From an uncultured virus (IMG/VR IMGVR_UViG_3300022858_000986) (lineage: Duplodnaviria > Heunggongvirae > Uroviricota > Caudoviricetes), in IMG/VR virus record IMGVR_UViG_3300022858_000986: a stretch of 64,000 nt of DNA. One strand, written 5' to 3'. A program made the position numbers and the translations under genes. The notes under the pieces were generated by a model that was given only the letters and a program-made list of their open reading frames with translations, made no database searches and had not been told where the DNA came from. Of the stretch, positions 11,872 through 52,834 are shown in pieces. How positions within the stretch are numbered: the first letter of the stretch is position 1; each line of letters opens with the position of its first letter.

Positions 11872-12114
11872 ATGAAACAAAAAATGCCAATGCGTATTAA
11901 TATTAAACATACAGCTTTAGATCCACACCACGACGGATTGTGTGAGTTCGGCTGTAAGAATCAAGAATTTTATTGTAGGACAAATGGTGCGACGAGATGG
12001 ACTAAAATGAAGAAAATACATATCACACCAAAACGTATTGAACTTTTTTATAAATTATTATCACTTGATAAATCTGATGATAGATTTACAATATACGGAA
12101 ATAAAGTAAATTAA
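11872..12114 (+). CDS. hypothetical protein, paralog of 12124; C-terminal FTIYG motif
   Basis: Shares H.ALDP...GC..QEFY.R...W..MK...ITP.RI with next ORF. Confidence 0.7.
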   Translation: MKQKMPMRINIKHTALDPHHDGLCEFGCKNQEFYCRTNGATRWTKMKKIHITPKRIELFYKLLSLDKSDDRFTIYGNKVN

Positions 12115-12123
12115 AGAGGAAAC

Positions 12124-12336
12124 ATGAATAAAGAAATTAATATTATACATATGGCTTTGGACCCAAACGATTGTATAGGAAATGCTGAAATCGGATGTTT
12201 TGGTCAAGAGTTTTACTTTAGAGGCAAAAAAACCAATGAATGGGTTAGGATGAAAAGAATGACTATTACGCCAGAACGTATTATAGTGGCTCATGATTTG
12301 TTAGTACAAGATAAAGCTAAAACTCACAACGTTTGA
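12124..12336 (+). CDS. hypothetical protein, paralog of 11872
   Basis: Visible tandem similarity; lacks the FTIYG tail. Confidence 0.7.
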   Translation: MNKEINIIHMALDPNDCIGNAEIGCFGQEFYFRGKKTNEWVRMKRMTITPERIIVAHDLLVQDKAKTHNV

Positions 12337-12417
12337 TAAAAAAAATAAAACAAACTTGACAAGTTCGTCTAAAAGAATATTATAGTATAGTAAGTTAAAT
12401 AAAGGAGAGAAAAAAAA

Positions 12418-12777
12418 ATGGCAAAAATTTTTATATTGGAAGATAACGATGAAAGAATTGCTCAATTTCGTAAGAACTTTAGAAATGCAGATTTAACTAT
12501 TGCAAAAGAAAGTAAAAAAGCAATAAAAATATTACGAAAAGAGAATCCTTTTGACTATATATTCTTAGACCACGACTTAGGCGGATTAGAAATGGTAGAG
12601 TCTGATGGGGGTACTGGGTATGAAGTGGCACAATGGTTGGCAAAAAATGCTTTAAAAAAACCAAAGTTTGCACTTTATGTGCATTCGTTAAATTTTCCTG
12701 GCGCAACTAACATAATTAGTGAACTTGGATATGGAAGTCATATACCATTTGTTTGGACAAAATTAATAAGTTTTTAA
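12418..12777 (+). CDS. receiver-like domain, cyclic-phosphate-processing (cREC) type
   Basis: IFILEDN..R, IFLDHDLG, TGYEVAQWL, VHS.N..G. Confidence 0.7.
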   Translation: MAKIFILEDNDERIAQFRKNFRNADLTIAKESKKAIKILRKENPFDYIFLDHDLGGLEMVESDGGTGYEVAQWLAKNALKKPKFALYVHSLNFPGATNIISELGYGSHIPFVWTKLISF

Positions 12778-12784
12778 ATAATTA

Positions 12785-13337
12785 GGGGGTGACCGGTTTT
12801 GACATGGAGACCCGCCTTATATGATTCACACTATGATGGCAACGAGCATACGAACTATGTTGCAAAACAAAATTAAACGGCAACAGCCAATTAATGGCGG
12901 CGTAAGCCACCCTTCGTGCGGTGTCTATTCTTTCTACACTGCAAATCGAAGTCATAATGAAGGATAATTGGTGACTACTAACAATGATAAAAACATGTAG
13001 AAACGCAATGTACCTGGCGAAGAGGGCGATGTATGGTTTGTTTATTTTTGATGCATCTGAAATTGTAAAATAAACTAAGTGTGTAAGAAAATTATAGTAG
13101 GCGACTTCGTGGACGTGGGTTCGATAAGTATAATTGTCGACCTGTATTGAAAGGTATAGTGAATAAATCTCTTCTGATTGACTTGGAAGTCCTACCATAG
13201 GACGACAGGGCGCAAGGGTAGTGCCAGCGTGAACGACTAAGCGAAGAGACATCCTTATGGGATGATGCGATAGTCTCGTCTCTACTATAAATGGTTTGAG
13301 AAAGTAGAGTTAAGATAACGTCCCACCACCTCCACCA
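12785..13337 (+). ncRNA. ssrA: tmRNA interrupted by an intron
   Basis: GGGGGTG/CACCTCC-ACCA acceptor with G3-U70; tag frame 12879-12905 GNSQLMAA*; T arm GTGGG-TTCGAT/T-CCCAC after splicing. Confidence 0.92.
13126..13320 (+). mobile_element. ORF-less group I intron in tmRNA T-loop (195 nt)
   Basis: P1 TCGAT/GTCGA with U-G at the 5' splice site, P7-like GACTA/TAGTC, P3-like TCTCTTC/GAAGAGA, terminal G; removal restores a 7-nt T-loop. Confidence 0.85.
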
Positions 13338-13370
13338 TTTGTTTGTATAGGCAAAAATAGTCTATATAAC

Positions 13371-13404
13371 TTTCTGCCTCCATACTTATATATGGAGGCA
13401 GAAA
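13371..13404 (+). promoter_or_regulatory. SD-sequestering hairpin with candidate late promoter
   Basis: Perfect 14-bp TTTCTGCCTCCATA/TATGGAGGCAGAAA burying GGAGG; ATACTTATA at apex. Confidence 0.75.
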
Positions 13405-13407
13405 AAA

Positions 13408-14142
13408 ATGAAAAAATATGAATGCGAAATATGCGGAGAAGAGTTTGAAAAGTGACAACAAAAAGCAAATCATGTTAGATGAAAGCATAAAAAAATAAAG
13501 TATAGTGAAGATGGCAGAAAAAATTTTTTAAATAGTGTTGATGCCCGATTTGGTAAAAAAATTACAAAAGAAATAATTTGTCCGATATGTAATGGACCAT
13601 TCGAAGTAACCGTTAGAGAAAATCGTCAAGACAAACATAAAAAATTTTGTAGTCAAAAATGTGCCAATGGCAGAAAGTGAAGTGATAAACAAAAAAAGAA
13701 GATTTCGGAAACACTTGCGACCCTTTACAAAGAAAATCCCGAAAAATTTGAAAACTTCATTGCATCAAATCAAAATAATGATAGATTTTCTTCAAAAATA
13801 GAAAGAGGGTTGGCAAAAAAATTAGAGCAATATGGCTTCAAGAGACATTGTAGAATTAAAACCGATGTGATTAATTTCGATATAGATATTGTATCAGAAG
13901 ACAAAAACATTTGGATTGAAAGTGATGGCCCGTATCATTTTAGGAAAATACATAAAAACCATGATTTCGAAAAATCACAATTAAGAGATTATGTGGAAAA
14001 TAATGAAGCCATAAATCAAAATAAATTATTAATTAGAATTGATAACGAAAAATATAAAGATATTGACATCCAAGTTAAATTAATATTAAATGAAATAAAT
14101 AAATGAGACAAAAAGATTGGAGAGGTTATTAAATTTTTTTAG
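13408..14142 (+). CDS. free-standing zinc-finger Vsr/DUF559-like endonuclease (4 TGA=Trp)
   Basis: C2H2 finger CEICGEEFEK*QQKANHVR*KH, FCSQKCAN, IDI...IESDGPYHF...RD...LIRI; 244 aa to TAG. Confidence 0.8.
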
Positions 14143-14161
14143 ATTTTAATAGGCAGGATAT

Positions 14162-14540
14162 GCGAGTGTCTTGTTAGATTAATTAAATAGACGTGAAAGC
14201 TAAAGATGACTAACCATCAACCCTAACATCAAAGGGAGAAAACGGCTTCTATCCCTTGCTATGGTGGCAAGATAAATTGAAGTGGGATTTGATTCCCTTA
14301 AAATCGTTGATGTACGTCTACAAATTTTGATAGTTGAATAAATACATATATCGAAAAAGGGTTTGTATTAGATATAGTGTAGTAGATATGGTGATTCTGA
14401 AACCCCGAAAGACCCGAAGCCGAAAGGTGAGTGAAGCAGTAAATCGCCATTATATTCGCAGTTCATCATAGATGATCGATTAAATATAATTTGATAGGTT
14501 ATTATGAGTCATTGAGATTATACAATCTACGCTCGCTCCA
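14162..14540 (+). ncRNA. candidate large structured RNA with tRNA-Gly-like acceptor end
   Basis: GCGAGTGT/ACGCTCGC + TCCA closes the region; multiple nested helices; no ORF in track. Confidence 0.6.
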
Positions 14541-15240
14541 TTTTTTTAAATTTTAATAGGAAGGTTATACAAGTGAAGTTAGATGCTCGCACACCAAAAA
14601 TGAAAATAAAATTAAATCACATTGAAGGTGTACATTTTTCTTTGGAATTTGACTCACCAAGACTTCCGACCAACAAATTAACTCCCTTAAAAAAAGAATT
14701 CAAGGCATCAAATGGTATTACTATTATTGCAGATATGTCCCCAGAAGTATGCAAAACATTAAACGAAGTTTATATACATGCTGGTGGATTCGAAAATAAA
14801 TGTAAATTTCATGCAACAAAAGAATTTATTTTCAAAATGTTTAACGCTCTGGATGAGTTTGCCAATAATGACTTCGGGTGGGATTAATGGAAAGATAATG
14901 TTTGATATAGGGCTATTAAAGAAAAGATTGAAAAATTTACAAAATTTAAAACTTACAATGGCTTACGACATATATGGTAATGAATTAAGTATAGTTTATA
15001 TACTAAAGGAGAAATAATGGAAACAACTATAGGGATAAACACGGACAAAATTAGGGCAATGATTAAGGAGCTTGAAAATTTAAATAAAAAACCACGTAGA
15101 AAAAAAATGTATGATATATACGGAAATCTTATACAAATTAGCGAAATATATCCCGAAAGCACAGGAAGTATTGTTACGAAATATTCAATGAAAAGCGATG
15201 GTGTTTTAGATTATCTTGATGAACCAATGGAGGGGCTTTG

Positions 15241-15471
15241 ATGAGTAAATTTAGTTACAAATTTTTTGAAAATAAAAACTGCGAATTTTACCCATGCAAA
15301 AATGTAGACAAGATTAATTGTTTATTTTGTTTTTGTCCATTATATAATATGGATGATTGTGGTGGGAATTATACGAGACTAAAAGATAATATTAAAGATT
15401 GTTCCAAATGTACACTACCTCATAGCAAAGGTGGGTATAATTATATTATAAACAAAATAAATAGGAGATAG
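15241..15471 (+). CDS. cysteine-rich small domain (zf-like) protein
   Basis: FFEN..CEFYPC...NCLFCFCPLY...CGG...KDCSKC.LPH. Confidence 0.85.
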   Translation: MSKFSYKFFENKNCEFYPCKNVDKINCLFCFCPLYNMDDCGGNYTRLKDNIKDCSKCTLPHSKGGYNYIINKINRR

Positions 15472-15474
15472 ATA

Positions 15475-15960
15475 ATGAGAGTAATATTTTTAGATTTTGA
15501 TGGAGTATTAAATAATGGCAAGTTTTTGTTTCATAACATGAGTAATTATCCAGATTTAATAATGAAAGAAAAGGTAAAATTGCTAAATACCTTAATAGAA
15601 AGAACAAACGCCAATATTGTTTTTTCAACTTCGTGGAGAGAGCAATTCACTTTTGAAGGCTTAATAGAAATTCTTGAAAAAGTAGAATTCAAATACAGAG
15701 ACAAATGTGTTGGCGTTACACCAATTGCAGAAAATAACAAACGCATTTCAGAAATTAAAGAATATATAGATACAAATAATATTGACGAGTTTGTAATTCT
15801 TGATGATTGTGCTGAAGAACTTTCTGGATTTGGTAATAATTTAACAAAACTTATAATAGACCCGAATAATGGTCTTACATACGAAGATGTTTGTTTTGTA
15901 ATTGAATCATTTGAAGCACAAAAAATAGAAAAGGAGAAAAATAATGAAAACAAAAACTAA
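15475..15960 (+). CDS. HAD phosphatase, Swiss-army-knife RNA-repair type
   Basis: IFLDFDGVLN, IVFSTSWR, R..EI..Y, FVILDD, GLT. Confidence 0.8.
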   Translation: MRVIFLDFDGVLNNGKFLFHNMSNYPDLIMKEKVKLLNTLIERTNANIVFSTSWREQFTFEGLIEILEKVEFKYRDKCVGVTPIAENNKRISEIKEYIDTNNIDEFVILDDCAEELSGFGNNLTKLIIDPNNGLTYEDVCFVIESFEAQKIEKEKNNENKN

Positions 15961-16475: not shown

Positions 16476-16563
16476 AAATCAAATAAGATTTTTTTGTTGA
16501 CAAAATTGATTAAAATACTATTATAATAATGTAAGTAAAAAAAAAAGAAAGGAAGTATTAAAG

Positions 16564-17328: not shown

Positions 17329-17740
17329 AAAAGATTTCCAATAAAATTTGTAATAAATGTAATAATCAAATATGACATATATGACAAAAGGTTAGCGAAA
17401 TGAAAGTAATATTAACGCAGAGTTCCAATTGGGAGCAATATATTAATAGTAGACACAAACTAAAAGTTATTTCTGGTGGCCCAGGTGCACTTGGGGCAAA
17501 TGGGAGTAAAGGTTATTTTGTACCCACTGATACAAAAGCAACTCAGGGCGGTAATGATGAGGATGAAGATTATCCAAAAGTTTCTATTAAGGGTAATATA
17601 TGGGGTTTATGTTTTAATTGGAAAATAGAATTAGATATATTGCTCTCTTACACAATTTATGGTAAGGAGATTTCATCTAATTTGAAGAATGAATTGTTGG
17701 TTATTGAAAGCAGAAAAATAGAACGTATATAGGAGAAACT

Positions 17741-20457: not shown

Positions 20458-21123
20458 ATGAAAACTGATAAAAAAAATTACTTATCGCAAATACAAAAAA
20501 CATTAAAAGAAAAAGAAGTGCTAATAAAAGAAATACACCATAGAGTTAAAAATAATAATCAATTATTAATGAGCCTACTTCATTTACAAAGTATGAAAAC
20601 AAGATCAAAAGTAGGACGAAAAATCTTAAACGGCGCCATAACTAGAATAGGAGCAATATCATCAACATATGAAAAATTATACATTAATCAAAATTTATCA
20701 GAGATTAATTTATCAAAATATATGGAAGAAATCATTTCTGACATTTCGTTAGTTTCGTTGGCATCATATGGGATTACTATTGACAAAAAAATTGAAAAAA
20801 ATATAATGTTAAAAGATATAAGCAAGGCCACTCCAATAGCACTAATAGTCAATGAACTATTATCAAACATTGTTAAGCATGCTTTTCCCAAAATAACAAA
20901 GGGAAAGAAAGTAAAAATTAGTTTGACAAATAACGACGATACAATTACTCTTGTTATTGAAGATAACGGCGTTGGTCTACCTGCTAATTATAATATAAGA
21001 AAGCAAGGGACAATGGGTTCGATGTTAATTCAAACATTTGCATCTCAACTTCAGGGCAAGATAAAATATGAAAAAGCATCTAAACAAGGATTGAAGGCTA
21101 CATTAAAATTTAAAATTAAATAG
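20458..21123 (+). CDS. sensor-less histidine kinase (HisKA_2 + HATPase)
   Basis: KEIHHRVKNN.Q, NELLSN..KHAF, IEDNGVGLP, G.MG..LI. Confidence 0.9.
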   Translation: MKTDKKNYLSQIQKTLKEKEVLIKEIHHRVKNNNQLLMSLLHLQSMKTRSKVGRKILNGAITRIGAISSTYEKLYINQNLSEINLSKYMEEIISDISLVSLASYGITIDKKIEKNIMLKDISKATPIALIVNELLSNIVKHAFPKITKGKKVKISLTNNDDTITLVIEDNGVGLPANYNIRKQGTMGSMLIQTFASQLQGKIKYEKASKQGLKATLKFKIK

Positions 21124-21614: not shown

Positions 21615-22964
21615 AACCTACACATTCCGTAATTTATCAGAATCAGAAATTGAAAGTTTATTAGCAACAGTAGCAACTCAAAAATTATATAGGAGAGCGG
21701 CAATTGAAACAAAAGTTAATTCCATCGAATCAATGGGGACATTTTTAGATGGGACGCCTAAATACTTTATCAAAATTGAAACAGACGATACAAAATTAAT
21801 TGAACGTTTTCAAAAAAATGAAAGAAAAATATAATGAGGTGAATAAAATGTTTGGAAGTAAAATTGAAATACTAGAAGATAAATATAACAAATTACAGGA
21901 GGTATAATGAAATTTGATGTTTTAAAATTAGCACCCGATTTTCCTGATGAATTTGCCTATAAGTATAACAAAACTGCTTTAGAGATTGTGCAAAAAAAAT
22001 TTGACATAGAGAAACTTGCAAACGATGTTTTCGCTATATCAAATAACGAAATGTCATTTTTTGTTATTTATGATGATATTGATAAATGTTGGAATTCAAG
22101 TATTGAAAATGAGCTTAATTTCAAGAAAGAAAAGCTTGAAGAAATTTCAACAAATAATTTTCATCAGTTTGTTGCTTTAAATTGTTTGCATACCGCACTT
22201 GCTGATAATGCAAGGTTATTTTTGAAAGACAATGTAAACGAAATCCTTGACAAAATAATGAAAAAAAGATAATTTTATCTTTAGTTAATAAGGGGGTGGA
22301 GTTGGGCGTAATAAATCAGGAATCATTAGGAAAATTAAAAGATAGATATTGGGAGATTGTAAATGAAAAATAATAAAGTATTTAGTGACTATAATGGTTA
22401 TGCAATTAAATGCCGCAATATTAATGAAAGAATAGAAATTTGCTCAAAAATTAAAACATATGGCTTTGATATCGCAAATGGACTTATCACCAATAATTTG
22501 CAAAACTATTTAACTTTAGTTATTTATAAATCAAGCGGACTTGATGCATATTCATCCTACCCAAAAGAATTAAAATACGTATCTAAAAAAATATTTTTAA
22601 GATTATTCTTAAATGGGAAAGGCAATAAGTTTACAATATACGGAGAAAAAATAAATTAGGAATGGAAAATGACCAAATATCAAAGGTATAAAAATTATGC
22701 GTATGAATGCAAAACTGATAGAGGAAGAATAGAATTATGTACTTACCTGAAAAATAGGGGTCTTAAAGTACCAAAGCAATTAATAAATAAAGAAACCACA
22801 GGTTGGAGAATATTGTATGTTGATCAGCAGGGAATAATAAATGCATACAATGAAATGGCACATAATAAGTTAAAATACATTTCGAAAACTCTTTTTCAAA
22901 GTTTGTTGTTATATCGTTTTTCAATCTATGGCGAAAAAAGAATGTTAGAAAGTTAAATAAAAGA

Positions 22965-23262: not shown

Positions 23263-24801
23263 ATGTTTGAAATTAAAGGGAAATACGGGAAAGCTTTTGT
23301 TCATATAGACCATATAGACGAAACAACTATGGCACAAATTCACAAATTTACGAACAATCCTTTCTTCACAGAAGACATGCATATAATGCCTGACACACAC
23401 GCTGGCAAGGGTGCTGTAATCGGTTTCACTATGCCTTTGCATGGATTGAGCATAATTCCCAACATAATTGGAGTTGACGTTAACTGCGGAATGATTTCTA
23501 TAAGATTAAAAGATTTGACCAGAAAACAAAGAAACAGACTCAGAGCAGAAAATGAAAAATATATGTCAAAAATTGATACAAAAATAAGAGAGTTAATTCC
23601 TATGGGATTTAACATACATACAAATAACGATTTGGATTCAACAATATCACCCGAACGTATATTAAAAGATGTTGCCAAAGAGTCGAAAGAAGAAGCAATC
23701 AAATTTGCTCATAAATTCTATAACAAATTTGGAATAAAGATTATAGATAAAATGCCTGATTATACATCTGATAAATTTCCTAAAGATATATTCAAACGTT
23801 CTGGAGTAGATAGCAACAGATTCTATCAATCAATTGGAACTTTGGGTGGCGGAAATCATTTCATAGAAATTGGAAGGGACGAAGAAGATTCGGTTTGGTT
23901 AACAATTCATACTGGTTCAAGAAACTTTGGAAATTTAGTTGCAAAATACTGGCAAGGAATTGCTGTTGATGAGGCGAAGGGAATCAATGGTTCTATCGAA
24001 GACGAAGTAAAAAAATTAATTGAGAAACTAAAAGCTAAAAAACAATTTGATAAAATTCAAAAAGAAGTTGCGAAGTTAAGAAAGGGATATGAGAACATAA
24101 AGGTAAAAGATGCAGATTTAGCCGTATTGACTGGAGATAACGCCGCAGGATATTTCTTTGATATGATATACGCTGGAAAATACGCTGAATATAACAGAAA
24201 AACTATTCTTGAATTAATTACTGAAACATATAACTGGAATTATGATTACATTGTTAGGTCAAATCATAACTTCATTGACTTTAATGATATGATAATTAGA
24301 AAAGGAGCAATCGCATCTTATAAAGGTACATTAATGGTTATTCCTTTTAATATGAGAGACGGTTTGTTAATTGTTTCAGGAAAATCTAATCCTGCATGGA
24401 ACTATAGTTGTGCTCATGGTGCTGGACGTATTATGTCGAGAACTGAAGCCAAAAGAACTTTAAGCCTCCAAGAAGCAGAAGATAGTATGAGGGCGGCTAA
24501 TATTTATACCAAAGGCGTTCCGCTTGACGAAGCCCCTAAGGCTTACAAAGACGCAAAAATAATTGAAGACGCTCTGAAAGACACGATGAGTGTTGTATAT
24601 AGAGTTAAACCCGTTTTAAATATAAAAGATCTTTCGTCAGGGAAGAAATGGAAAAAAATAAGGAAAAATAAAATGAGAAAATCAAAAAAAATAGATACAA
24701 TAGATATAAATCGAGGTGTTTCTTTAGTAGCATTAAGAGATTGGTGCAACAAACAAATTAAAGCGAGCGCCAAAGACAAAGTGCGTACAGATATTGAGTA
24801 G
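23263..24801 (+). CDS. rtcB: RtcB RNA ligase
   Basis: MPDTHAGKG, GVDVNCG, GTLGGGNHFIE, HTGSR, HN, RKGA, HGAGR, DEAP.AYK. Confidence 0.95.
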   Translation: MFEIKGKYGKAFVHIDHIDETTMAQIHKFTNNPFFTEDMHIMPDTHAGKGAVIGFTMPLHGLSIIPNIIGVDVNCGMISIRLKDLTRKQRNRLRAENEKYMSKIDTKIRELIPMGFNIHTNNDLDSTISPERILKDVAKESKEEAIKFAHKFYNKFGIKIIDKMPDYTSDKFPKDIFKRSGVDSNRFYQSIGTLGGGNHFIEIGRDEEDSVWLTIHTGSRNFGNLVAKYWQGIAVDEAKGINGSIEDEVKKLIEKLKAKKQFDKIQKEVAKLRKGYENIKVKDADLAVLTGDNAAGYFFDMIYAGKYAEYNRKTILELITETYNWNYDYIVRSNHNFIDFNDMIIRKGAIASYKGTLMVIPFNMRDGLLIVSGKSNPAWNYSCAHGAGRIMSRTEAKRTLSLQEAEDSMRAANIYTKGVPLDEAPKAYKDAKIIEDALKDTMSVVYRVKPVLNIKDLSSGKKWKKIRKNKMRKSKKIDTIDINRGVSLVALRDWCNKQIKASAKDKVRTDIE

Positions 24802-29223: not shown

Positions 29224-29598
29224 GTGAATAATAGAAAAAATATAAAGGTGCTTATAGTTGAAGATATGGGTATTGTTGCAAAAGATATGCAAGCAAGTTT
29301 GGAAATGCTTGGTTACTCAAACAGCGATATTGCTTTATCTGATAAAGAGGCATTGATACTTGCTAATGAAAACAAATATGATTTAATTTTAATGGACGTT
29401 AGATTGGAAGGTTCTGCACAAGATGGAATAGAAATTGCTAAAATTATTAACAATAATATTCCGATTATATTTTGCACGGCATATTCTGATGTTGAGACAA
29501 TTACACAAATATTAAACGCTCCGCACTTGTCTTACATTTTAAAGCCATTTGAAGTAACAAAAATTAAAGACGTAATAGACGCAATTTTATTAAAATAA
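29224..29598 (+). CDS. single-domain response regulator
   Basis: LIVED, DLILMD, DGIE, IIFCTAY, YILKPF. Confidence 0.9.
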   Translation: MNNRKNIKVLIVEDMGIVAKDMQASLEMLGYSNSDIALSDKEALILANENKYDLILMDVRLEGSAQDGIEIAKIINNNIPIIFCTAYSDVETITQILNAPHLSYILKPFEVTKIKDVIDAILLK

Positions 29599-36500: not shown

Positions 36501-37282
36501 AAGTTATGCCTCCAAGACTTAACGTATCAAGGACTTATCCAATACCAGACCATAAAAATAATGCAATTATTTTGGGGACATCATTGATTAAGGGTGTTGG
36601 GCCAAAAGCTGGCACTGAGCTTAGTAGAGTAAATAAAGTTGGTAAAGATTATTTCACATTAGAAGAATTCTTAACAAGCCCTGATATTGACCACAGAAGG
36701 ATTAATAAAGGAGTAGTTGAAAAGTTAATTCTAATAGGTTACTTCGATGGTTTTGGCGTAGATAGACTTGAGTTATTGTTGAAGCTTGAGAAGACAAAAA
36801 TTACAAAGAAAAAACTTTTAGAATGGAAAGAAAGTGAAGAAGAAAATGATAAAGCATTTCTTGACAATAAATATGGTGGTATCAGAAATAAAGAAATGTT
36901 CTTATATAAGAGAGAATTATTAAACTTAGGCACAGCAGTTATGGAGCATCCAATTAAAGATGAACTTCCTAAAATAATTGAATTGTTAAAGAGTGAAATC
37001 CCTATAAATAAAAGAGATAGTGCAATACCAGTCGTTGTTAATAACATTGAACAAGTACGTGTAAAAGAAACAAAGAATGGTAAAAAATTCTTAGCAACAT
37101 CATTTAGAGATATTGACGGTAATTTATATTGGATGAATATTTGGGATAATCAAATTGAAGAACTTAAAGAAGACCATGATTTTGATTTAGAGAACCCAAA
37201 AGATTATAATAGAACGTGTGTTATGTTAATTGCAGATAGTAATGGTTGGAAAAATTTATTGAATTTTATAGCAATAGAATAA
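33533..37282 (+). CDS. dnaE: DNA polymerase III alpha subunit with intein
   Basis: PHP LHAHS..S..DG, SDHG; GRGSAAGSLV; PDIDVD; HAGG; KFDFLG; LYRPGP; FNK/SH; TTG start behind a TTGACA-N16-TATTAT promoter. Confidence 0.95.
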   Translation: MEKLLNLHAHSCHSIFDGIAKPYEYARYISENPDKFYQALSISDHGTLNGMVETFWAAKKYKLKYIPSCEIYMAPTPEDISGVRYHLVLFGVNEKGMNQLVQINNMAIKRGQIFKSRIGRQYTIITPDIMKEVIGREKGFLKCSGACIGGYFNSEILHDRMDVAEERVEQLIDIFGERNVYGEYQTFYDEDEMQKKVNMGVKKLSEKYNLQTIITSDAHALKKEDLQYSMVVRAMSMKMTLNDYMAKFSSDVVNSIYYKSAEDFTNDLAKHDFGITQEDLKNSLETTGKIFKLIQSFDLHKGQSFVFEDGDKKKNNKMFLQYLSEGWKEKIKNKIDTKNHPKYKARLKHEIDILMQKGFVDYFLAVRKIVLVAEEKGIIRGVGRGSAAGSLVSYLLDITNVDPIKHNLLFDRFINVKRMDFPDIDVDISNRKAVVKIIQELYPNKDVVVVSNKGKLLLKNTLQYLCKVLDVKYPKTYYVDNGLHFSKLIVAHEIGNGQIDKFMELKDAIKLSRWILAEHKLDLAEMLKILVGNISTTGVHAGGVCILEHNQGVVPYTPIANADYPYGSGLSESGSSLELEYVGEIKFDFLGIKTLRIFKDMVGNLAKWDKEKMKELNHNLIRFNKIDINDPLVYKFLNQAVTEGIFQFGSSGMRRMLKILKPKNMEDLSALNALYRPGPLGAGMHKEIAKAKKNKSYGKSLWDKKILNLVEDIITVTDYQILYEEQTMLIGKVIADYSDEDLNDFRKFLKKPKRDATFFANQKRFYDAFMTNGKLKDISEKALQTLWDKLVKFSKYSFNKCLGGDTLIQTQNGAKEIKYIKSGDKVLSYDIDNDDIIEAEVKELHRNGRKKLYSIEADTGEIIKCTLDHKFLTVDGEMHSLKEILDNDLELKSLEKDNMKFLKETLKEIGYRQTYDLEINHKDHNFLIGNDLIVTSNSHSMSYAYNSFLCAYFATYHPLDWYATLLKHENPIEFIPVIKEHIQKRSLDIKVMPPRLNVSRTYPIPDHKNNAIILGTSLIKGVGPKAGTELSRVNKVGKDYFTLEEFLTSPDIDHRRINKGVVEKLILIGYFDGFGVDRLELLLKLEKTKITKKKLLEWKESEEENDKAFLDNKYGGIRNKEMFLYKRELLNLGTAVMEHPIKDELPKIIELLKSEIPINKRDSAIPVVVNNIEQVRVKETKNGKKFLATSFRDIDGNLYWMNIWDNQIEELKEDHDFDLENPKDYNRTCVMLIADSNGWKNLLNFIAIE
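35933..36343 (+). mobile_element. mini-intein (137 aa, no endonuclease)
   Basis: FNK|CLGGDT...TLDHKF...TYDLE...HNF...TSN|SHS. Confidence 0.9.
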
Positions 37283-38336
37283 AGAAAAATAAAATAGGAG
37301 ACAAGATGAAACTTATTGAAGAGACAAAACTTGAACAATTTGAAGGTGTAAGATATAGAATGAACGAAGAGGGATTTCATTATTGTTTTGTACATTATAG
37401 CGATTTTAAGGAAATAAATGATGAAAAATTTCACAAATTAAGAAAAGAATATATAGAAGTTGCAAAAAAGTTAAAAGAATATATAGATGTAATTATACAA
37501 GATGAATTAATATAAAGAATTATAACATTTTGCGACAATAGAATAGGCCATTTTGTCAATATATGTATTGACAAATAGAAGGTTATGTGAAAATAAATAA
37601 TAATAAAAATATTTTAAGGAGAATATTATGAAATTTGTAATTTGGCGTACAAGCGGTATTTATGTTGACAACATAAAAAATAAACCTTGCGGTGAAGCAA
37701 AATTATCTTTGGTTGAAAGTTGGAATACAAGAACGTGTGACGAAAAAACTTTTAATGAGAATTTTTCAGAACGAGAAGGCTTATGGAGGAGTAAAGGCAG
37801 AAATCATTCGATTGATAAAAATGGATATATAACTAGGCAAATGGAAGATTATGAAGAATGGACCGTTGAGTTTGCTACTTTGGAAGAACTAATTGCTTTT
37901 TCAAATAAATATGGCGAATTGGTAGTTCAAGCTTCGTGGTATGATAGTAAATATGGGAGTATTGAGATTTATGACGATTACAGAGAATAAGCGCATACAT
38001 ATATATAAGACTACAAGCAGGAGAAGGTTATGAAAATAATAGTTGAAGAAAAACTTAAACCCAAAATATTGGCCGCACTTTATAACAATTCAAAACCGCT
38101 TGGTATGGGCATAATGCATTTCGACCCAACATTAATGGTAGAAAAGGAAGCAGAAAGAATATTAAAATCACAAACTTATTTTGATTATCTCAAAGGACGT
38201 GTGATGAAATTAGATTTTGCTACAAATCAAATAGACACTTGCTTGTATGACCGTGATAATGGCGATGGCTCATGTGAACGAATTATAAACGGAATAATTA
38301 ACAAAACATATACAATATATGGTGAAAAGGTTAGCA

Positions 38337-38906
38337 ATGGTAAGTAAAAAAAAGTATAATGTAATTTACGCCGACCCACCTTGAAGATTTGGGTCAAAAG
38401 CATATCAAGATTCAAATAGAAAAATGTTAGTATTGGATGAAACTCAATACAATACGTTAAGTATAGATGATTTGAAAATGCTTAACATCAAAAATATAGC
38501 CAATAAGGATTGCATTTGTTTTATGTGAGTCACTGATTCCCATTTAAAAGAAGGTATTGAAGTTTTGGAAAGTTGGGGCTTCAAATATAAAACAATAGGG
38601 TTTAATTGAATAAAAAAATATAAATCTGGTTCTTTTTGCGTAAATTTTGCACCATGGACATTAAAATCTTGGGAAGTTTGTTTGATTGGTACAAAGGGAA
38701 CTATGGGAAAATATAAGGTTGTAAACAATATTCAAGGATTGGTAATTGAAGAAAGAACCAAACATAGTAAAAAGCCAATAGAAGTAAAAAAAAGAATTGA
38801 ACAATTGTTTGGCAATATTCCAAAAATAGAATTATTTGCAAGAGAAAAGTCTTATGGTTGGGATGTTTGGGGAAACGAAGTAGAAAGCGACATTATAATA
38901 AAATAA
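38337..38906 (+). CDS. MT-A70 family adenine methyltransferase (3 TGA=Trp)
   Basis: IYADPP*, FM*VT, WGFKYKT.GFN*IK, HSKKP, IELFAR, GWDVWGNE. Confidence 0.9.
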
Positions 38907-39046: not shown

Positions 39047-39598
39047 ATGACAAAAGAAATGAAGACACACTTTGATGATAGAACCAAAATGCATATTAAG
39101 CTTGTACAAAAGTATATGGGTAAAATTATCAATATAGACAAACAATTTCAAGCATTAAAGAAAAGAATGTCGAAACATGATGCGTCAAAATTTAGAGGAA
39201 CAGAATATATACCGTATGTGTCTATTACTTGAATGTATAAATGTCAACGTGACGGAGTTGAATGGGAAATTCCAGATGAAATGAAAGACAAAGCAACAAA
39301 GGCAACTATACATCATATGCTATCAAACAAACACCACCCAGAATATTGGGATGAAAACTTTGATGCAGATGAAATGTTTAACGCAAAAAATAGAGACGGA
39401 GTGCCAAGAAAAATGGTTGATGGCACAGAAATGGAGCCGCTATCAATTGCAGAAATGATAGCCGATTGGTGCGCTGTATCGGAAGAGCGTGGAACAAATC
39501 CTAATGATTGGTTAAATGCGAATGTAAATAAACGTTGGAAGTTTACTGATTTGCAAGTTAAATTTATGAAAACTTTATTAAAGAAGATATGGGAGTAA
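39047..39598 (+). CDS. DUF5662-like HD protein (1 TGA=Trp)
   Basis: HDASK...HH...NKHHPEYW...EMIADW; two abutting track ORFs in one frame. Confidence 0.75.
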
Positions 39599-39600
39599 AA

Positions 39601-40017
39601 ATGGGAACAATATTAAAAGACCAATTTATTTTTAAGTTAGATAGCCCATCCATACATGGGGAAGTTTTTCCTGAGGGTGCGATAGAAAAAGTTATAGAAG
39701 AATATAATGAAAATTTTGTCAAACAAGGAAAGGCTTATGGCGAACTTTGGCATCCAGATAGTATTCTCGATTTAGGTGCTGTTATTAATTTATCAAACGC
39801 TTCACATTTAATAACAAAACTTAAAGTAGAAGATAATAATTTACTTTGTGATGTAAAAGTTTTAGAAACTCCAAAGGGTAAAGAGTTGGAAAAGCTTTTG
39901 CCATATTGCGAAATTAAACCAAGAGCTATTGGATTGATTGGGATGGGCGAAGATGGGAATAATATAGTAGAAAATTATGAAATTATCAGTTTTGATATAG
40001 CAACGAAGAAGGAGTAA
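39601..40017 (+). CDS. prohead protease-like protein (T4 gp21 family)
   Basis: AYGELWHP, INLSNASHLIT, VLETPKGK. Confidence 0.7.
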   Translation: MGTILKDQFIFKLDSPSIHGEVFPEGAIEKVIEEYNENFVKQGKAYGELWHPDSILDLGAVINLSNASHLITKLKVEDNNLLCDVKVLETPKGKELEKLLPYCEIKPRAIGLIGMGEDGNNIVENYEIISFDIATKKE

Positions 40018-40201: not shown

Positions 40202-41056
40202 ATGAATAGTGTTTCGTATTCACAATTTAAGAAATATTTAGGTTGTCCGAGAGCGTGAGCGAATAAATACATACGTGATATAAAACTATTTACCGATAGC
40301 ATTTATACGATATTCGGCTCTGCAATGCATACAACGGTTCAAGAGTGGGTTAGGGTTATTTACAATGAGTCCGCAAAAAAAGCAAATGAGTTAGATTTGA
40401 ATAAAATGCTTAAAGAAAATCTAAAACTTGAATATTCTACGGCAAAGAAAGATAACAACAATATTGACTTTTTAGATGCCAAAGAATTGTTTTCATTCTA
40501 TGAAGATGGTGTTGCGATATTAGATTATTTAAAGAAAAAACGTTCTAAATATTTTCAAAAAAAACATATCAAATTAATGGGTATTGAAGTTGAACTCGAT
40601 ACGCCTGTAAATGATAATATTAGATTCCATGGATTTATCGATATAGTTTTGAAAGACACGTTAAGAGATAAGATACTTGTTATTGACTTAAAAACTTCAA
40701 CTCATAGTTGGGGCAAATTCAAAAAGAAAGACGATTTGGTACGTATGCAATTATTATTTTACAAACATTATTATGCAGAGCAATTTAAGGTTGATGTAAA
40801 TGATGTTGAAATATTATTTTTAATACTTAAGCGTAAGTTGTATGAGAAGAGTGATTTCCCGCAACCGAGAACGCAAACTTTTATACCGCCGAATAGCACA
40901 CGAACAATAAATAAATATTTGAAAACATTGGATGAATTTATTAATGAGTGTTTTGATGAAAAAGGCGACTATATAGATAAAGATTATGAGGCATCAGGAA
41001 ATGCAAACGCATGCAAATGGTGTGAATATAAAAATACAGAGCATTGCCCAAAATAG
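40202..41056 (+). CDS. PD-(D/E)XK nuclease, RecB/Cas4-like (1 TGA=Trp)
   Basis: SYSQF..Y..CPRA*, G.AMH, GFIDIV, IDLKTS, QL.FY, CKWCEY...C. Confidence 0.85.
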
Positions 41057-47061: not shown

Positions 47062-47469
47062 ATGGATAGTGTAAGAAAGCCAAGCTATACACTTACGATT
47101 GACGGCATAACTGTTGACGTTCAAGACAATAATTGAAAAATGGGGAGCGAAGCGCCATATCATGGTGACTCAAAGTTTACGGCGACAATATATCTTGATA
47201 TGCCCGAAGCCAGACTCCTAATTGATAAGCTTCGAAGTGATTCCATTTACGACAAAGGGTTTAAGCTTATTGCCTGTTCAGGTCCCAAAGAAACAATATT
47301 TTTAGGCAAGATACGTTATGTAGCGGATTTAAATGTTGAGGTTGAATATAACACTCCCACAGCGACGTTTACAATTTTTACCAATGAAGCAGAGATATTG
47401 CACCGAGATATAAGATTTCGAAATGAAAAAAGATATGATATATTTGGCAAAAGAGTAAGAACAATATAA
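47062..47469 (+). CDS. hypothetical protein (1 TGA=Trp), C-terminal YDIFG motif
   Basis: ATG 47062 overlaps previous gene end and is in frame with track ORF 47140. Confidence 0.6.
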
Positions 47470-47490
47470 AATTAATATAAGGAGTAGCAA

Positions 47491-49023: not shown

Positions 49024-49036
49024 AAGGAGAAAGCAA

Positions 49037-49813
49037 ATGTTATATTACACAATTGGAATGATTGTTGCATTTTTCGTTATAATATATTTCGTATCATATT
49101 TTATAAAGAAAGCAATGATTGAAAGAGCAAAGATATTATTCAGTATTTCACACTTAGGCGATAGAAGTATTGAAGAAGACAAATTACGTAAAATGGGACT
49201 AAAGCCCGCAAATATGCGTAAAAAATATGGGCACGATGCAACGCTTGGAACGGTATCAACTGAACTATTGAACAAGACAAGAAGGGATATTTTAAAGATA
49301 AAGAATATTTTTAATTGGAAAAAAGATTTTATATTTGGCAATGCATTTATATACAAAAAATATTGTGCAATGATAGGAACGATCGAAGTGAATAAAATAG
49401 AAGAGCAAATTTACGCACTTCAGGAAAAACAGGCAAAAATACAAATAAGCCAAGTAATGCAAGGATATGGTCTTCATGATAATGAAAGAAATAAAATCTT
49501 GGCTGGTTTAATTGAGCCAGATGGAATTGAAGATAAAGTTTATTCAAGAAAATCAAGAAGAGATTTTTGAGAAGAATGTCATGAGCCTAATAAAGAAGCT
49601 GATTGTGTGTGCGGAGCAGGTGCAAAGCCAGAACCAACTTTGCCTGCGCCCAAAATGGGCGACAAAACTTTAGACAACATAAATATTTTAACAGAAGGGG
49701 CATTCGAAGATATTCAAAGTGTTGGCAAGCAAATGAGAGAAGAATTATTAGAGCAAGATGATATTGATGTTAATGAAGAGTTAAAAGAAAAAGGGATAAC
49801 GGTGGAGGATTAA
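49037..49813 (+). CDS. membrane-anchored hypothetical protein (1 TGA=Trp)
   Basis: N-terminal TM segment; track ORFs 49037 and 49607 are in one frame. Confidence 0.55.
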
Positions 49814-49970
49814 TTATGGGAAAAAGTAGACAAAATTGGTTAATACTATTGGCAAAAACAAAAAGTCAACTTGATTTGCTAATTGAAGCCGGAATGATAC
49901 GAATAAAAATTCCAGGAGTGCTTAAAAGTAAAACTGAACAAAACAATTTTTTAAATAGTGGAGGCGATAT

Positions 49971-51260
49971 ATGTTATGTGTAATACAAGCGTGTGTTTCG
50001 TCTTTTTCTGGATATGGAGCGCATTCTCGGGACATAGTAAGAGCCGTAATTAAAAAATATCCTAATTGAGATATTAAAATTAATGATACACGTTGAGGTA
50101 ATACGCCCAAAAATGCATTAATAAAAGGTAAGGATGATGAAATAATAAATAGAATATTAAAAGGCCCACTTAATAGACAGCCAGATATTTTTATTCAAAT
50201 TACTGTTCCTAACGAGTTTAATCCAGTTGGTAAATATAATATAGGAATTACTGCTGGAATTGAAACAACCAAATGTGCGCCAGTATGGTTAGAGGGGTGT
50301 AATAGAATGGATTTAATTATTACAACTTCCGTACATTCTAAATCAGTTTTAGAACAAACCGAATGGGAAATGAAAAATGAAAAAACTGGTCAACCTATGG
50401 GTAAATTACAATTAAAATCAAAAATTGATATTTTGTTTGAAGGTATTGACAAAAACATTTATCATAAAACTGATAAAAGCTATGAAGTTGTGGATAAATT
50501 AATGGATAGAATTCCTGAACAATTTGCATTTCTTTTCGTTGGGCATTGATTGGCAGGCGATCTTGGACATGACAGAAAAGATGTTGGTATGATGATTAAA
50601 ACATTTTGTGATACATTCAAAGGTAAGTCAAAAAAGCCAGCATTAATTTTAAAAACAAGTGGCGCTTCTTATTCAATTATTGATAGAGAAGAAATATTAA
50701 AAAAAATAAATGATATACGCACAAATGATAATTTGCCGAATGTATATTTGTTACATGGTGGCATAACGGATGACGAAATGAATGGGTTATATAATCACAA
50801 GAAAGTAAAAGCAATGGTGTCATTTACACACGGAGAAGGTTACGGTCGTCCGTTTGCCGAATTTGCAGTTTCAGAAAAACCAATCATTGCTTCAAATTGA
50901 TCAGGCCATGTTGACTTTTTAAATCAAAGTTATTCAATCTTATTGCCTGGCGAATTAAAGCAAGTTGATAAGTCTGTAGTTTGAAAGGATATTGTAATTC
51001 AAGATTCAAGTTGATTTTACATTAACTATTTTTATGCATCGCAGGCAATCAAAGATGTATTTGAAAATTATGACAATTATAAGATTAGAGCAAAGAAGCA
51101 AGCAGATTTAATAAATGAAAAGTTTACGAGAGAAAAGATGGAAGATAAATTATATGAAATATTTGAAGAAAATATTCCTGAATTTCCTGCTGAAGTTCAA
51201 ATAAAATTACCATCAATTAAAAAATTAAAAAAACCTACAATGATTAAAAAAGGAGAATAG
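49971..51260 (+). CDS. GT4-family glycosyltransferase (6 TGA=Trp)
   Basis: SGYG..SRD, GH*L.G..G.DRKD.G, GEGYGRPFAE, ASN*SGHVDFL; GGAGG SD. Confidence 0.85.
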
Positions 51261-51414
51261 AAATGGAAACAATTACAGATGTTGAAAAATTAGAAAATAT
51301 AGCAAAATGCGCATTAGATAAGGCGGGAGATTGCGAAGACCCAGATTTAGTATACGAATGGCTTAATTCTTATGTATATGTTAGAGAACTTTTACGTGAA
51401 TTGGATGGCGAGTA

Positions 51415-51906
51415 ATGGGAAAAGAACAAAAAAAAGAAATGGAAAAAATTATTTGCCCTGTATGTAAAGTTAATTTCTGTTACAAAGATGATTATCCAGA
51501 TGGTTCAGCAGGATATCTTTGTTACAATTGTGGAATGACAAGCCATAGCAAACTTATCCCAGATACAGAATATCTTGAAAAAGCAATAATTTCAACTCCA
51601 GAATTTATTAATGATAATATGTTCCTTGATGAAAAAAGAAATATATATTGGTTCTTATCAACTATAAGAACGGTTACTGGAATAGTGTTTCCAGAGCCAG
51701 ACGACTCATTTGATGGATGGAATTGGGCGGTTGCAAAGATTGTTAGTATATCCGAAGAAGAGCAAAAAGATTATCCAATACCTGGAAAAGATGGCGAGTT
51801 CTACACAAATCGATTGGCAATTGATGATGCAACACATTTTAGAAAGAATAAATTTTATGACGCCTGTCAAGAACTAGGCGGAATACTAAAGACTCATCAG
51901 GAGTAA
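51415..51906 (+). CDS. zinc-ribbon-containing conserved phage protein
   Basis: CPVC...C, CYNCG. Confidence 0.6.
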   Translation: MGKEQKKEMEKIICPVCKVNFCYKDDYPDGSAGYLCYNCGMTSHSKLIPDTEYLEKAIISTPEFINDNMFLDEKRNIYWFLSTIRTVTGIVFPEPDDSFDGWNWAVAKIVSISEEEQKDYPIPGKDGEFYTNRLAIDDATHFRKNKFYDACQELGGILKTHQE

Positions 51907-51908
51907 TT

Positions 51909-52334
51909 ATGGCAATTGTAGGGTCGAAATATGGGAACATCAATCAGACGTTTAATGCAAATTTTTATAACAAGGGCAATCTTGATTTAACAAAACATCT
52001 TTTCGAGGCACTCGATTCTGCTGGCATTGAATATCTCAAAACTACACTCCCATGTGGCCCAATTGGCAATTCAAAATTAGACAGGTTTTGTGTGAAGTCA
52101 ATCAAACTTAAAACGATATGGAAGGACAATGGCCGACCAATTCCATGAGATTATATTATTGACGAAGTAAGGCACAGATGTTGTTCTAAACATAAAACCC
52201 CAATATTCCTCAGCCTTACGAGTGTCGTGATGTATGATCCAAAAGATTTTTCGTCAATGGGTGGTTTAATCATTAGGTTTCACGAAGGGTTTGGGGATAA
52301 ACCATCATACACGATTTATGGAAAACGATGTTAA
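51909..52334 (+). CDS. hypothetical protein (1 TGA=Trp), C-terminal YTIYG motif
   Basis: Read-through of TGA 52146 gives 62 further codons ending PSYTIYGKRC-TAA. Confidence 0.6.
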
Positions 52335-52366
52335 AAACTTATACAATATACGGAAAGGAGTTATAA

Positions 52367-52834
52367 GTGGGGGTTTCTTCTGTATTATTTAATATATTGG
52401 CCGATTATCAAAAGGAATATTCGTATACCTTATTGCCTGTTGCCGATGATATACCTACCACATACACAATGCCGAACGTAGGTAAAGAAATTAGTAAAGA
52501 AACATACAAGTTAAAACGAATACGATATAATTTTTCAATTTCCAATGATACTAAATGATGAAGATTTAAGTATATAATTAATAATAATATAACCAAACTC
52601 TTATTTGAATTTGCCGAGAAAGTTATACTTATACAAAAGACAAAAGTTTTAATGGATGTGGGCCATGATAGTATGAGTTTTACATTTGAAATTATGGCGT
52701 ATCCAACAAATTCACAAAATGCAATAAAATTTGCAAAACAAAATGAAATTGTAAAAGCACCAAAAGTTCCGATACAAAAAGGTTACACAATCTTTGGACA
52801 GATTATTGATATTAAACAAGGAGAAAAAAGATGA
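52367..52834 (+). CDS. hypothetical protein (tandem TGA-TGA internal), YTIFG motif
   Basis: Track ORFs 52367 and 52652 in one frame; 3' end uncertain. Confidence 0.5.

Follow-up and report, generated by a model that had tools for sequence, protein, structure and literature searches.

A selected Tyr-x-Ile-Tyr-Gly end-tag on otherwise unrelated small proteins of a large phage, a putative docking handle

Why should small proteins of one phage that otherwise have little in common carry the same short peptide, usually close to the C-terminus? This question is raised by a window of 64,000 nucleotides (one strand) from the uncultured Caudoviricetes virus IMGVR_UViG_3300022858_000986, a large, AT-rich and partly TGA-recoded phage, in which a first-pass annotation had listed eleven such peptides on small ORFs. 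In full, the motif reads [YF]-[TSDN]-I-[YF]-G-[NEKQ]-x-[ILVC] and is about eight residues long. The residue following Gly is N, E, K or Q in every copy, and the third position after Gly is hydrophobic in 9 of the 11 copies. For counting we used the strict pattern [YF][TSD]I[YF]G on the code-4 six-frame translation of the window, and a gene set of 132 code-4 ORFs (19,648 aa). All eleven listed peptides were recovered, position for position, on the + strand (Table 1).

Enrichment, reading frame and position of the motif

The strict pattern gave 12 matches on the + strand of the window and one on the - strand, where FDIFG (53544) lies in an antisense frame. Among the + strand matches, the twelfth, YTIFG at 40304, falls at residue 35 of an exonuclease of 284 aa and is probably due to chance. 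In the 132 ORFs 11 strict matches were counted, whereas 20,000 per-protein shuffles averaged 0.118 and reached at most 3; looser patterns of the motif were 6 to 15 times above shuffles, and no exact 5-mer of the proteome was more enriched than YTIYG, found in 3 ORFs where 0.009 were expected. The long-ORF frame holds 11 of the 12 + strand matches, and the other two frames of the consensus are free of stop codons. Distant jumbo-phage loci totalling 77.7 kb gave no match in any of their six frames. A further 22 kb from the same phage contained no good copy, and therefore the tag is not genome-wide.

Most copies had been described as lying near the stop codon, and this holds for 7 of the 10 in-ORF copies, which are no more than 12 residues from it (1.28 expected, P=6.5e-5). 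Three copies, at 15110, 17649 and perhaps 52784, are non-terminal and lie 60, 22 and 42 residues from the code-4 stop, respectively; if TGA terminates, the distance drops to 38 residues for 15110 and 11 for 52784. The TGA at 52832 overlaps ATG 52831, and a possible end of ORF 15017-15307 is seen at TGA TGA (15239-15244). The copy at 52340 lies on a stump between genes rather than on a real ORF, so the placement of all eleven on small ORFs needed correction. VYNMTGKK in ORF 55635, once regarded as a looser copy, is a different motif, and its ortholog in a metagenome relative (L005) reads VFNVKGKK. The decayed copy at 874 has TAA in place of the first Tyr codon, and the near-copy at 14519 would be N-terminal given ATG 14504 and TGA read as W. 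ORF 38030-38347, which carries the tag at 38309..38332, overlaps the 5' end of an MT-A70-type methyltransferase ORF.

Table 1. Copies of the tag and related features in the window.
Feature	Coordinates	Strand	Position and context
Tag FTIYGNKV	12085..12108	+	4 residues before stop, ORF 11872-12114 (80 aa)
Tag YDIYGNEL	14964..14987	+	12 residues before stop of small ORF
ORF of tag 14964	14778-15017 (longest frame)	+	Probable start ATG 14898, 39 aa
Tag YDIYGNLI	15110..15133	+	Residues 32-39 of ORF 15017-15307
Tag YTIYGKEI	17649..17672	+	22 residues before stop, ORF 17400-17732 (110 aa)
Tag FTIYGEKI	22630..22653	+	4 residues before stop, ORF 22363-22659 (98 aa)
Tag FSIYGEKR	22918..22941	+	7 residues before stop, ORF 22669-22956 (95 aa)
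Tag YTIYGEKV	38309..38332	+	7 residues before stop, ORF 38030-38347 (105 aa)
Tag YDIFGKRV	47434..47457	+	6 residues before stop, ORF 47062-47469 (135 aa)
Tag YTIYGKRC	52308..52331	+	Final 8 residues, ORF 51909-52334 (141 aa)
12-codon stump MLKTYTIYGKEL-stop	52328..52366	+	Tag at 52340; ATG overlaps 51909 stop
Tag YTIFGQII	52784..52807	+	ORF 52367-52927; 11 residues before TGA 52832
Decayed copy stop-TIYGDKV	874..897	+	In frame, directly past stop of ORF 694-873
Near-copy YTIYA	14519..14533	+	Upstream of probable real start GTG 14573, ORF 14504-14887

Conservation and kinship of the tagged proteins

Conservation at the protein level, which the first-pass annotation had proposed, was borne out by eight pairs of orthologous tags from metagenome relatives (L005 and L007) and protein databases. 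The tags had 17 synonymous and 2 non-synonymous differences in 40 codons, and the 8 codons upstream of them had 3 synonymous and 43 non-synonymous differences in 64. Differences between the paired tags at codon positions 1, 2 and 3 numbered 1, 1 and 17, and information content tracks codon phase, being high at positions 1 and 2 and low at 3. Nine tag residues are exactly kept in an ortholog of 47062 with 47% identity (P0002), and an ortholog with only 17% identity, at 4691-5182 of L005, carries the tag YNIFGKKI. In a relative's protein of 77 aa with a tag at both ends (P0016), orthologs that are 38% identical agree at all 10 N-terminal tag residues and at 7 of the 8 C-terminal ones. These comparisons show that the module is kept constant by amino-acid selection while the protein bodies diverge almost freely. 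The DNA cores of the tags differ among unrelated proteins, with a mean of 10.4 of 15 bases in common; identical residues in spite of differing DNA favour sequence-specific recognition over a generic fold element.

The proposed test, whether homologs in other phages lack the tail, had a negative outcome in the 51909 family, the one family for which distant homologs were found: each of its 8 full-length members retains the motif, in strict form in 6 and as FTIEG and YTIDG in the other two. Since it is ancestral there and found in every full-length member, the motif of this family is possibly integral to the fold and not an appended tag.

The tag is present on about nine otherwise unrelated families of small orphan proteins, usually at the C-terminus and sometimes at the N-terminus. 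The description of its carriers as mostly unrelated stands overall, except that 22363 and 22669 are paralogs and that sharing is partial for 14898/15017, which have a common 36-residue helix-plus-tag module, and for 11872/22363, whose families are aligned by hhalign over the last 21 columns only. For the 51909 and 22363 families hhalign covers only 10 columns. The proposed portability agrees with this, as unrelated families have only the last 10-21 residues or so in common and P0016 has an N-terminal copy. The other tagged proteins have one copy each, and ORF 12124-12339, a tandem paralog of 11872, has none. Seven tagged proteins are of similar size (80-141 aa). Tagged genes are located both in the early-promoter region and in the sugar-enzyme region, six of them among early host-type promoters.

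Gene gain and loss at tagged junctions

The stump in Table 1 is the remnant of the gene for P0016, which is intact in three relatives (L005, L006 and L007), and its GGAAAGGAG is the ribosome site for GTG 52367. As read from the sequence, the stump is the product expected from recombination between the two tags of P0016. In repeat D10, the DNA running from the 22630 tag to the ATG that follows matches the 12085 junction at 75% identity. Three relatives keep a tandem copy of 32 nt, and in L007 the two tags of one gene agree at 31 of 36 bases. In L005 and L007 the 52784 stretch also persists, in no long ORF but upstream of the orthologous gene. Gene gain and loss at junctions appears to have left the tandem copies, stumps and decayed copies as its marks, and in part this has been shown. 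The module may be spread and lost there through short duplications in tandem and through recombination and gene conversion among its DNA copies, a step that is likewise partly shown.

In T4-type phages, promoter-stem-loop cassettes shuffle small early genes through repeats. The likeness to our case is that short junction repeats drive gain and loss of small cassettes: window positions 7686-8280 are missing from a 99.9%-identical record (L008), a cassette change driven by promoter repeats, and the tag copies appear to act in the same manner. The repeats of T4-type shuffling are, however, non-coding regulatory DNA, whereas the tag is selected as protein.

Possible functions of the tag

No family match for the tag was found in Pfam or PHROG. 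The suggested likeness to T9SS C-terminal sorting domains was not upheld, because neither Por_Secre_tail nor any other Pfam entry matched 13 tagged or neighbouring ORFs even at E<=5, and the shared part here is only about 8-21 residues. The T9SS domain is a C-terminal beta-sandwich of roughly 70-100 residues in Bacteroidota hosts; the strong AGGAG ribosome sites of the window genes and their TTGACA-N17-TATAGT promoters argue against such a host. YD/RHS repeats, which come as several units in tandem that match the RHS_repeat profile, were rejected because of the occurrence of one copy per protein (two in P0016) and the lack of a Pfam match at E<=5, and homing-endonuclease repeats (NUMOD1/IENR1), in which a helix-turn-helix comes after a hairpin, gave no Pfam match in tagged ORFs at the same threshold, NUMOD3 being detected by the Pfam scan only in endonuclease ORF 3468-4454.

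Other known peptides resemble the tag in features other than sequence. Clamp-binding motifs of polymerases and repair proteins and the acidic tails of T7 replication proteins are terminal hub-docking peptides, with which the tag shares being a short terminal motif, conserved above its surroundings, on unrelated proteins that in those systems have one reader; the sequence differs, the carriers here are orphan proteins, and neither a clamp nor another hub was found. The sliding-clamp-binding consensus is of the QL[SD]LF type at the protein end, and neither Gln nor a Leu-Phe pair occurs in that of the tag, [YF][TSDN]I[YF]G. The capsid targeting sequence (CTS) of internal proteins in T4-type phages is N-terminal, is cut by the prohead protease and occurs on head-packaged proteins; like the tag, it is one short conserved peptide on diverse small fast-evolving phage proteins. 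The tag, however, is mostly C-terminal (7 of 10 copies within 12 residues of the stop), has no conserved cleavage motif following it and is unrelated in sequence, and six tagged genes are among early host-type promoters; it was therefore rejected as a T4-type CTS. Encapsulin cargo peptides, which direct unrelated proteins to a phage-capsid-like shell, are also C-terminal peptides of about ten residues, but their sequences have no likeness to the tag. No shell or capsid gene was found in the window.

Two readings place the signal outside the finished protein. A DNA or RNA signal that is translated only incidentally (phage promoter, operator, processing site or recombination linker) would be consistent with the occurrence of the consensus, at up to 3 mismatches, 15 times against 4.1 expected, with copies that lie in no long ORF (874, 14519, 52340 and those in the leaders of L005 and L007), with recombination between tags and with TAC in 8 of 17 tag Tyr codons against 23% genome-wide. 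We consider it highly improbable, because third codon positions hold 17 of the 19 orthologous tag differences, information follows codon phase, 11 of 12 + strand copies are in the long-ORF frame, the 24 bases before the motif, in which a -35 element should lie, are not conserved, and no RNA structure is found at ten junctions; recent gene loss beside a conserved ribosome site accounts for the out-of-ORF copies. A nascent-peptide signal, which from within the ribosome tunnel would slow or arrest the ribosome near the stop and so tune translation of the gene directly downstream, is improbable. C-terminal arrest peptides act upstream of secA or yidC2, and in favour of a similar action here selection acts on the translated sequence, 7 of 10 copies are 3-12 codons from the stop, the ribosome site of the next gene is within 27-93 nt and the motif ends in Gly. 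The N-terminal copy of P0016 and the mid-protein copies at 15110 and 17649 do not fit this reading, nor do the variable stop distance and the unrelated genes downstream; RNA structure that could be opened by a stalled ribosome was found at none of the ten junctions (z-scores -1.13 to +1.29).

Timed destruction or cleavage, in which a host or phage protease would read the terminal peptide and limit the lifetime of the protein or clip it, is a special case of docking to a shared partner, from which it is inseparable here. Terminal position and the many tagged genes among host-type early promoters agree with it, and a phage-borne tmRNA together with a weak S77-protease-like ORF (39589-40017) suggests that proteolysis tagging may matter to the phage. 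It is nevertheless quite improbable, since the motif is 3-13 residues from the end and not at the very C-terminus, is unlike the tmRNA tag (frame 12789-12905, ending in LMAA) and has no conserved cleavage motif after it. A more serious alternative, though in our view still unlikely, is a shared structural remnant: the tagged ORFs would come from, or borrow the 3' ends of, one fast-evolving gene pool without a common partner, and only the terminal strand-turn-strand would be recognisable, since it would be a folding nucleus or sheet cap. The ancestral motif in 8 of 8 full-length 51909-family members, the tandem paralog pairs 22363/22669, 11872/12124 and 14898/15017, the similar protein sizes (80-141 aa for seven) and the similar hairpin GWDVWGNEV at the end of the MT-A70 methyltransferase (38337-38906) itself argue for such an origin. 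Between the 51909 and 47062 families hhalign gave a weak colinear match (45 columns), which points the same way but has only 7% probability, and in profile comparison other family pairs are without similarity past 10-21 terminal columns. Furthermore, a generic capping hairpin need not hold the same five residues across unrelated folds and at either terminus, and paralog 12124 manages without the tag.

We tentatively prefer, at somewhat less than an even chance, a lineage-specific terminal strand-turn-strand docking handle with a putative partner, spread by short duplication and recombination. The motif pattern fits two short strands joined by a Gly turn, and we infer that the most likely role of the tag is that of a shared docking handle: through an exposed strand or hairpin at the terminus, varied small proteins would bind one partner or each other by strand addition to a beta-sheet. 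The tag is short and terminal, more conserved than its flanks and carried by unrelated proteins, as is generally the case for short linear docking motifs. PDZ or other peptide-binding domains were found in none of 54 further window proteins by a Pfam scan, and the analysis found no partner for the tag and no role in sorting, capsid loading or protease targeting, as put forward in the first-pass annotation. AlphaFold2 gave poor models for two tagged families (pLDDT 48.7 and 41.5), with the tag as a strand in one and a helix in the other, and the hairpin shape is thus only putative. A wider form of the docking handle, which is possible but doubtful, is a protein address code of this jumbo-phage lineage's own, in which a dedicated phage or host reader would recognise the eight-residue Tyr-x-Ile-Tyr-Gly hairpin at either end. 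The reader would thereby collect, localise or package a varying group of small accessory proteins or time their destruction, and new genes would join by recombining with a tag copy at a junction.

Much of any large phage genome consists of small orphan genes, which are nearly impossible to study singly. Here a strongly selected end-tag ties about ten of them to one putative partner, for which the tag could be used as bait. The case also illustrates how a functional peptide may move between genes by means of its own short DNA repeat, which would be a simple route for new accessory genes into an existing system.

Occurrence and position of the peptide

All 11 peptides reported by the first-pass annotation are present in the window, each at its reported place, and conform to the pattern [YF][TSD]I[YF]G. 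In a six-frame translation under code 4, in which TGA is read as Trp, this strict pattern had 12 hits on the plus strand and one on the minus strand. The 132-ORF gene set (19,648 residues) contained 11 matches, whereas 20,000 per-protein shuffles of the same set averaged 0.118 and never exceeded 3; looser patterns were likewise far above shuffles, and YTIYG was the most enriched exact 5-mer. With the sites aligned, the consensus grows to [YF]-[TSDN]-I-[YF]-G-[NEKQ]-x-[ILVC], and basic residues often stand before it. A clear C-terminal bias was found, seven of the ten in-ORF copies ending at most 12 residues from the stop (1.28 expected, P = 6.5e-5); the earlier statement that most copies lie near the stop holds for these, but not for three copies, which are not near a stop under code 4. 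The copy at 52340 had been placed on an ORF but sits in a 12-codon stump (52328-52366) rather than in a gene, and VYNMTGKK of ORF 55635, proposed as a looser relative, is probably unrelated to the tag, as is a match at 40304 in an exonuclease. The further 22 kb of the same phage genome contained no good tag copy (64 + 22 kb read). In distant jumbo-phage loci obtained via RtcB for comparison (77.7 kb in total), the strict motif had no match in six frames and a relaxed pattern had one. A profile of ten tags gives unseen true tags just 10-19 bits.

No PHROG family was found for any tagged ORF, and Pfam gave nothing above noise for them at E<=5. The suggested likeness to T9SS sorting domains thus found no Pfam match, and RHS and NUMOD repeats were rejected on the same search. 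The nearest published idea is the capsid targeting sequence of T4 (PMC3012670), from which the tag differs in position and context. In agreement with the first-pass remark that the peptide was not recognized as a described phage tag, a full-text literature search with the six pentapeptides led to papers on epitopes, proteases and similar topics and, as judged by titles and the starts of abstracts, to none on phage tags. Several other explanations were discarded: a glycosylation sequon, because 3 of 11 copies carry Asp at position 2 and one ortholog has Asn there; Tyr modification, as both aromatic positions accept Phe; translational bypass between the GGA codons 52320 and 52352, by which just three residues would change; and a connection with the tmRNA tag, which has an unrelated sequence. 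The end of an MT-A70-type methyltransferase (38337-38906; ...FAREKSYGWDVWGNEV...) resembles the tag and lead-in of ORF 47062 (FRNEKRYDIFGKRV); an origin of the tag from this C-terminus was considered and dropped as nothing more than a likeness, which may be chance or may mark a source of the tag.

Carriers, relatives and gene junctions

The tagged ORFs, named here by their start coordinates, had been called mostly unrelated. About nine groups can be recognized, in line with this, but 22363 and 22669 are paralogs, and 14898 and 15017 have a 36-residue helix-plus-tag module in common. ORF 12124, a paralog of 11872, has no tag. Profile comparison supports the proposed portability: the alignment between the 11872 and 22363 families is confined to the last 21 columns. 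Just 10 columns align between the 51909 and 22363 families, and the 51909 and 47062 families gave a 45-column match with 7% probability.

Close relatives were not found in the named-phage collection. Viral-contig scans with 22363, with the 47062, 51909 and glycosyltransferase alignments and with two DNA patterns had no matches, nor had a first metagenome scan and one genome-contig pattern scan. From protein collections came an ortholog of ORF 47062 with 47% identity, in which nine C-terminal tag residues are exact. A word-and-profile search provided P0016, a 77-residue protein of another phage in which one copy of the motif occupies residues 5-9 and a second lies 13 residues before the end. 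Through P0016, three metagenome loci (L005, L006 and L007) were reached. L005 is syntenic with 42.6-56.8 kb of the window, and 18 of the 26 ORFs on it have counterparts among the window proteins with 33-81% identity. In all three loci, the ortholog of 51909 has a terminal YTIYG-x-x-C, and the P0016 gene, whose product starts with MLNTYTIYGK, has its ATG overlapping the stop of that ortholog; the second tag is thus a 32-nt tandem copy in another frame. Two P0016 orthologs are 38% identical overall and keep 10/10 and 7/8 of the tag residues. The L005 gene upstream of the glycosyltransferase has just 17% identity to 47062, yet it has a terminal YNIFGKKI. A search of 1.84 billion representatives with the 51909-family profile found 12 proteins, nine of which were taken as true members (of the other three, two are long repeat proteins and one is a weak hit). 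On the proposed check of whether homologs in other phages lack the tail, the motif is present in 8/8 full-length members, 3-13 residues from the end, as six strict motifs plus FTIEG and YTIDG. L005 additionally has tandem small paralogs (1106-1306 and 1310-1519) with a different common terminal peptide, K-[IV]-[IV]-Y-E-A-E-[GR], without window counterpart. An ESM Atlas features search with P0016 was uninformative, with scores up to 0.77, and the AlphaFold2 pLDDT values of P0016 (48.7) and the 51909 family (41.5) are too low to inform on the shape of the tag.

Transfer, duplication and loss of the tag at gene junctions are partly shown. The junctions at 12085 and 22630 have 75% identity over 53 nt that take in the tag, the stop and the ribosome site and extend into the next gene. 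The two tags of one L007 gene have 31/36 bases in common, which indicates gene conversion, and orthologous tags across genomes have synonymous-site differences. The window's remnant of P0016 is the stump MLKTYTIYGKEL-stop, and its sequence is exactly what recombination between the two tags of a P0016 gene would leave. In L005 and L007, the gene of ORF 52367 is missing, and its end, starting with the tag and reaching the ribosome site that serves gene 52831, is kept outside any long ORF; because the two loci are very similar downstream of this point, we consider these copies recent remnants that the neighbouring ribosome site has kept in place. Another decayed copy, after ORF 694-873, has its first Tyr codon replaced by a stop. 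Around 900-975 of L007, a decayed tag frame (KKKYIIFGQIIKIKQGEKHD-stop) lies at +1 relative to an upstream ORF ending ...ATT TAA A, an offset that may stem from a frameshift mutation or mark a +1 shift site at the stop codon.

Genomic setting of the tagged genes

The window has a G+C content of 28-33%, and its plus strand carries all long ORFs. Greedy ORF coverage is 83% (153 ORFs) with TGA as a stop and reaches 90% (133 ORFs) once TGA is read as Trp; genes with internal TGA lie mostly beyond 47 kb, and the large replication genes have none. TGA apparently serves both as Trp and as stop: it is frequent within late sugar-enzyme genes and aligns (47134) with a Trp of an ortholog, and stop overlaps are found at gene starts, one of them next to a zf-like gene at 15241 with a strong ribosome site. 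This dual use may reflect stage-dependent decoding. According to PHROG and Pfam scans, this is a large-phage replication and accessory region with genes for DNA polymerase, helicase, RtcB, RNA ligase, methyltransferases, several glycosyltransferases and sugar-nucleotide enzymes. A 42.2-kb IMG/VR record (L008), 99.9%-identical to the window, has a CheckV completeness of 13%, which suggests a genome near 300 kb.

Ribosome sites of window genes are AGGAG, and the promoter repeat TTGACA-N17-TATAGT occurs at least nine times within the first 23 kb. A 193-aa gene (7686-8280), exactly flanked by two promoter repeats, is missing in L008; the repeats therefore mediate cassette loss. The window appears to encode a phage tmRNA, whose inner frame (12789-12905) ends in ...NSQLMAA-stop and looks like the tmRNA's own tag reading frame. 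Two endonuclease-like ORFs are probably free-standing homing endonucleases. PHROG 21587 gives an extra match common to the DNA polymerase (33533-37282, residues ~775-878) and a 712-aa sugar dehydratase/epimerase (60494-62632), whose insert at ~130-515 includes an endonuclease-like part; these inserts look like inteins. The phage further encodes a histidine kinase, ribosomal protein L7/L12 and two receiver domains, of which one belongs to the cyclic-phosphate-processing type. Its RNA-repair set comprises RNA ligase, RtcB and a HAD domain as known from "Swiss army knife" repair proteins.

Coordinates of features in the window and related loci
Feature	Position	Strand	Details
TGA-TGA tandem or ATGA stop-start overlap	15239-15244, 52556-52561, 52831-52834, 12334-12339; L005 ~5164; L007 ~739		at starts of well-supported next genes
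Repeat family with TTGACA-N17-TATAGT promoters	4805, 7610, 8276, 9409, 11297, 12339, 16063, 16494, 22948		50-130 nt
tmRNA	12792-13127	+	Rfam, full-length, 47.9 bits (gathering score 47), E=7e-16; no ARAGORN call
tRNA-Gly(GCC)	3470-3543		directly followed by ORF 3468-4454 with NUMOD3 and TnsA-like endonuclease domains
Endonuclease-like gene	13408-14142		paralog of ORF 3468-4454; 47-nt repeat D12 in common; weak HNH PHROG hits
DUF4116 repeats	9514-10041		six tandem 66-nt units within ORF 9472-10122
L7/L12, histidine kinase, receiver-domain and RNA-repair genes	6124-6492, 20458-21123, 29224-29598, 12418-12777, 10252-11292, 15475-15960, 23263-24801

Selection on the peptide and its possible role

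Selection on the amino-acid sequence of this short terminal peptide is strong, and its carriers are unrelated, fast-evolving small proteins. As had been proposed, conservation is at the protein level: information per base tracks codon phase, and in the Thr, Ile and Gly codons it is high at the first two positions but low at the third. Eleven of the 12 plus-strand copies are in frame of a long ORF, and the other two frames of the tag consensus are without stop. Codon choice approximates genomic usage, save some excess of TAC. When four orthologous tag sets from the window, L005 and L007 were compared (8 pairs), differences at codon positions 1, 2 and 3 numbered 1, 1 and 17. Of the 40 codons compared, 17 differed synonymously and 2 non-synonymously; for the eight codons directly upstream, the counts were 3 synonymous and 43 non-synonymous in 64. 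The 24 bases upstream of the tags have no conservation, and RNA folding of ten tag-to-start regions was no better than shuffles (z-scores -1.13 to +1.29). From these results together, we conclude that the element is selected as a peptide; a nucleic-acid signal fits less well and is very improbable. A second recurrent "peptide", GDKMK, found in upstream-extended ORFs (5451, 9472, 19657, 23011 and 37246), was rejected as an artefact, being a translated ribosome site, spacer and ATG (GGAGATAAAATGAAA), and is a reminder that peptide motifs can be mimicked by DNA signals.

Unrelated proteins retain identical tag residues, whether the tag stands at the N- or the C-terminus. The simplest reading, which we hold tentatively, is therefore that one partner would recognize the tag sequence-specifically, or that tags would pair mutually, probably via a strand-turn-strand; this is close to the docking or sorting beta-hairpin proposed at first. 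Its main rival, which we consider unlikely, is a structural end-piece that was inherited and has no reader; the ancestral presence of the motif in the 51909 family speaks for this alternative. A nascent-peptide pause signal fits the selected peptide less well and is improbable, and a degradation signal, also fitting less well, is slightly more so. The tag sequence, its carriers and its spread via its own DNA repeat are, as far as the PHROG, Pfam and literature searches show, undescribed, and they belong to a kind already known, in which diverse proteins have a common terminal peptide.
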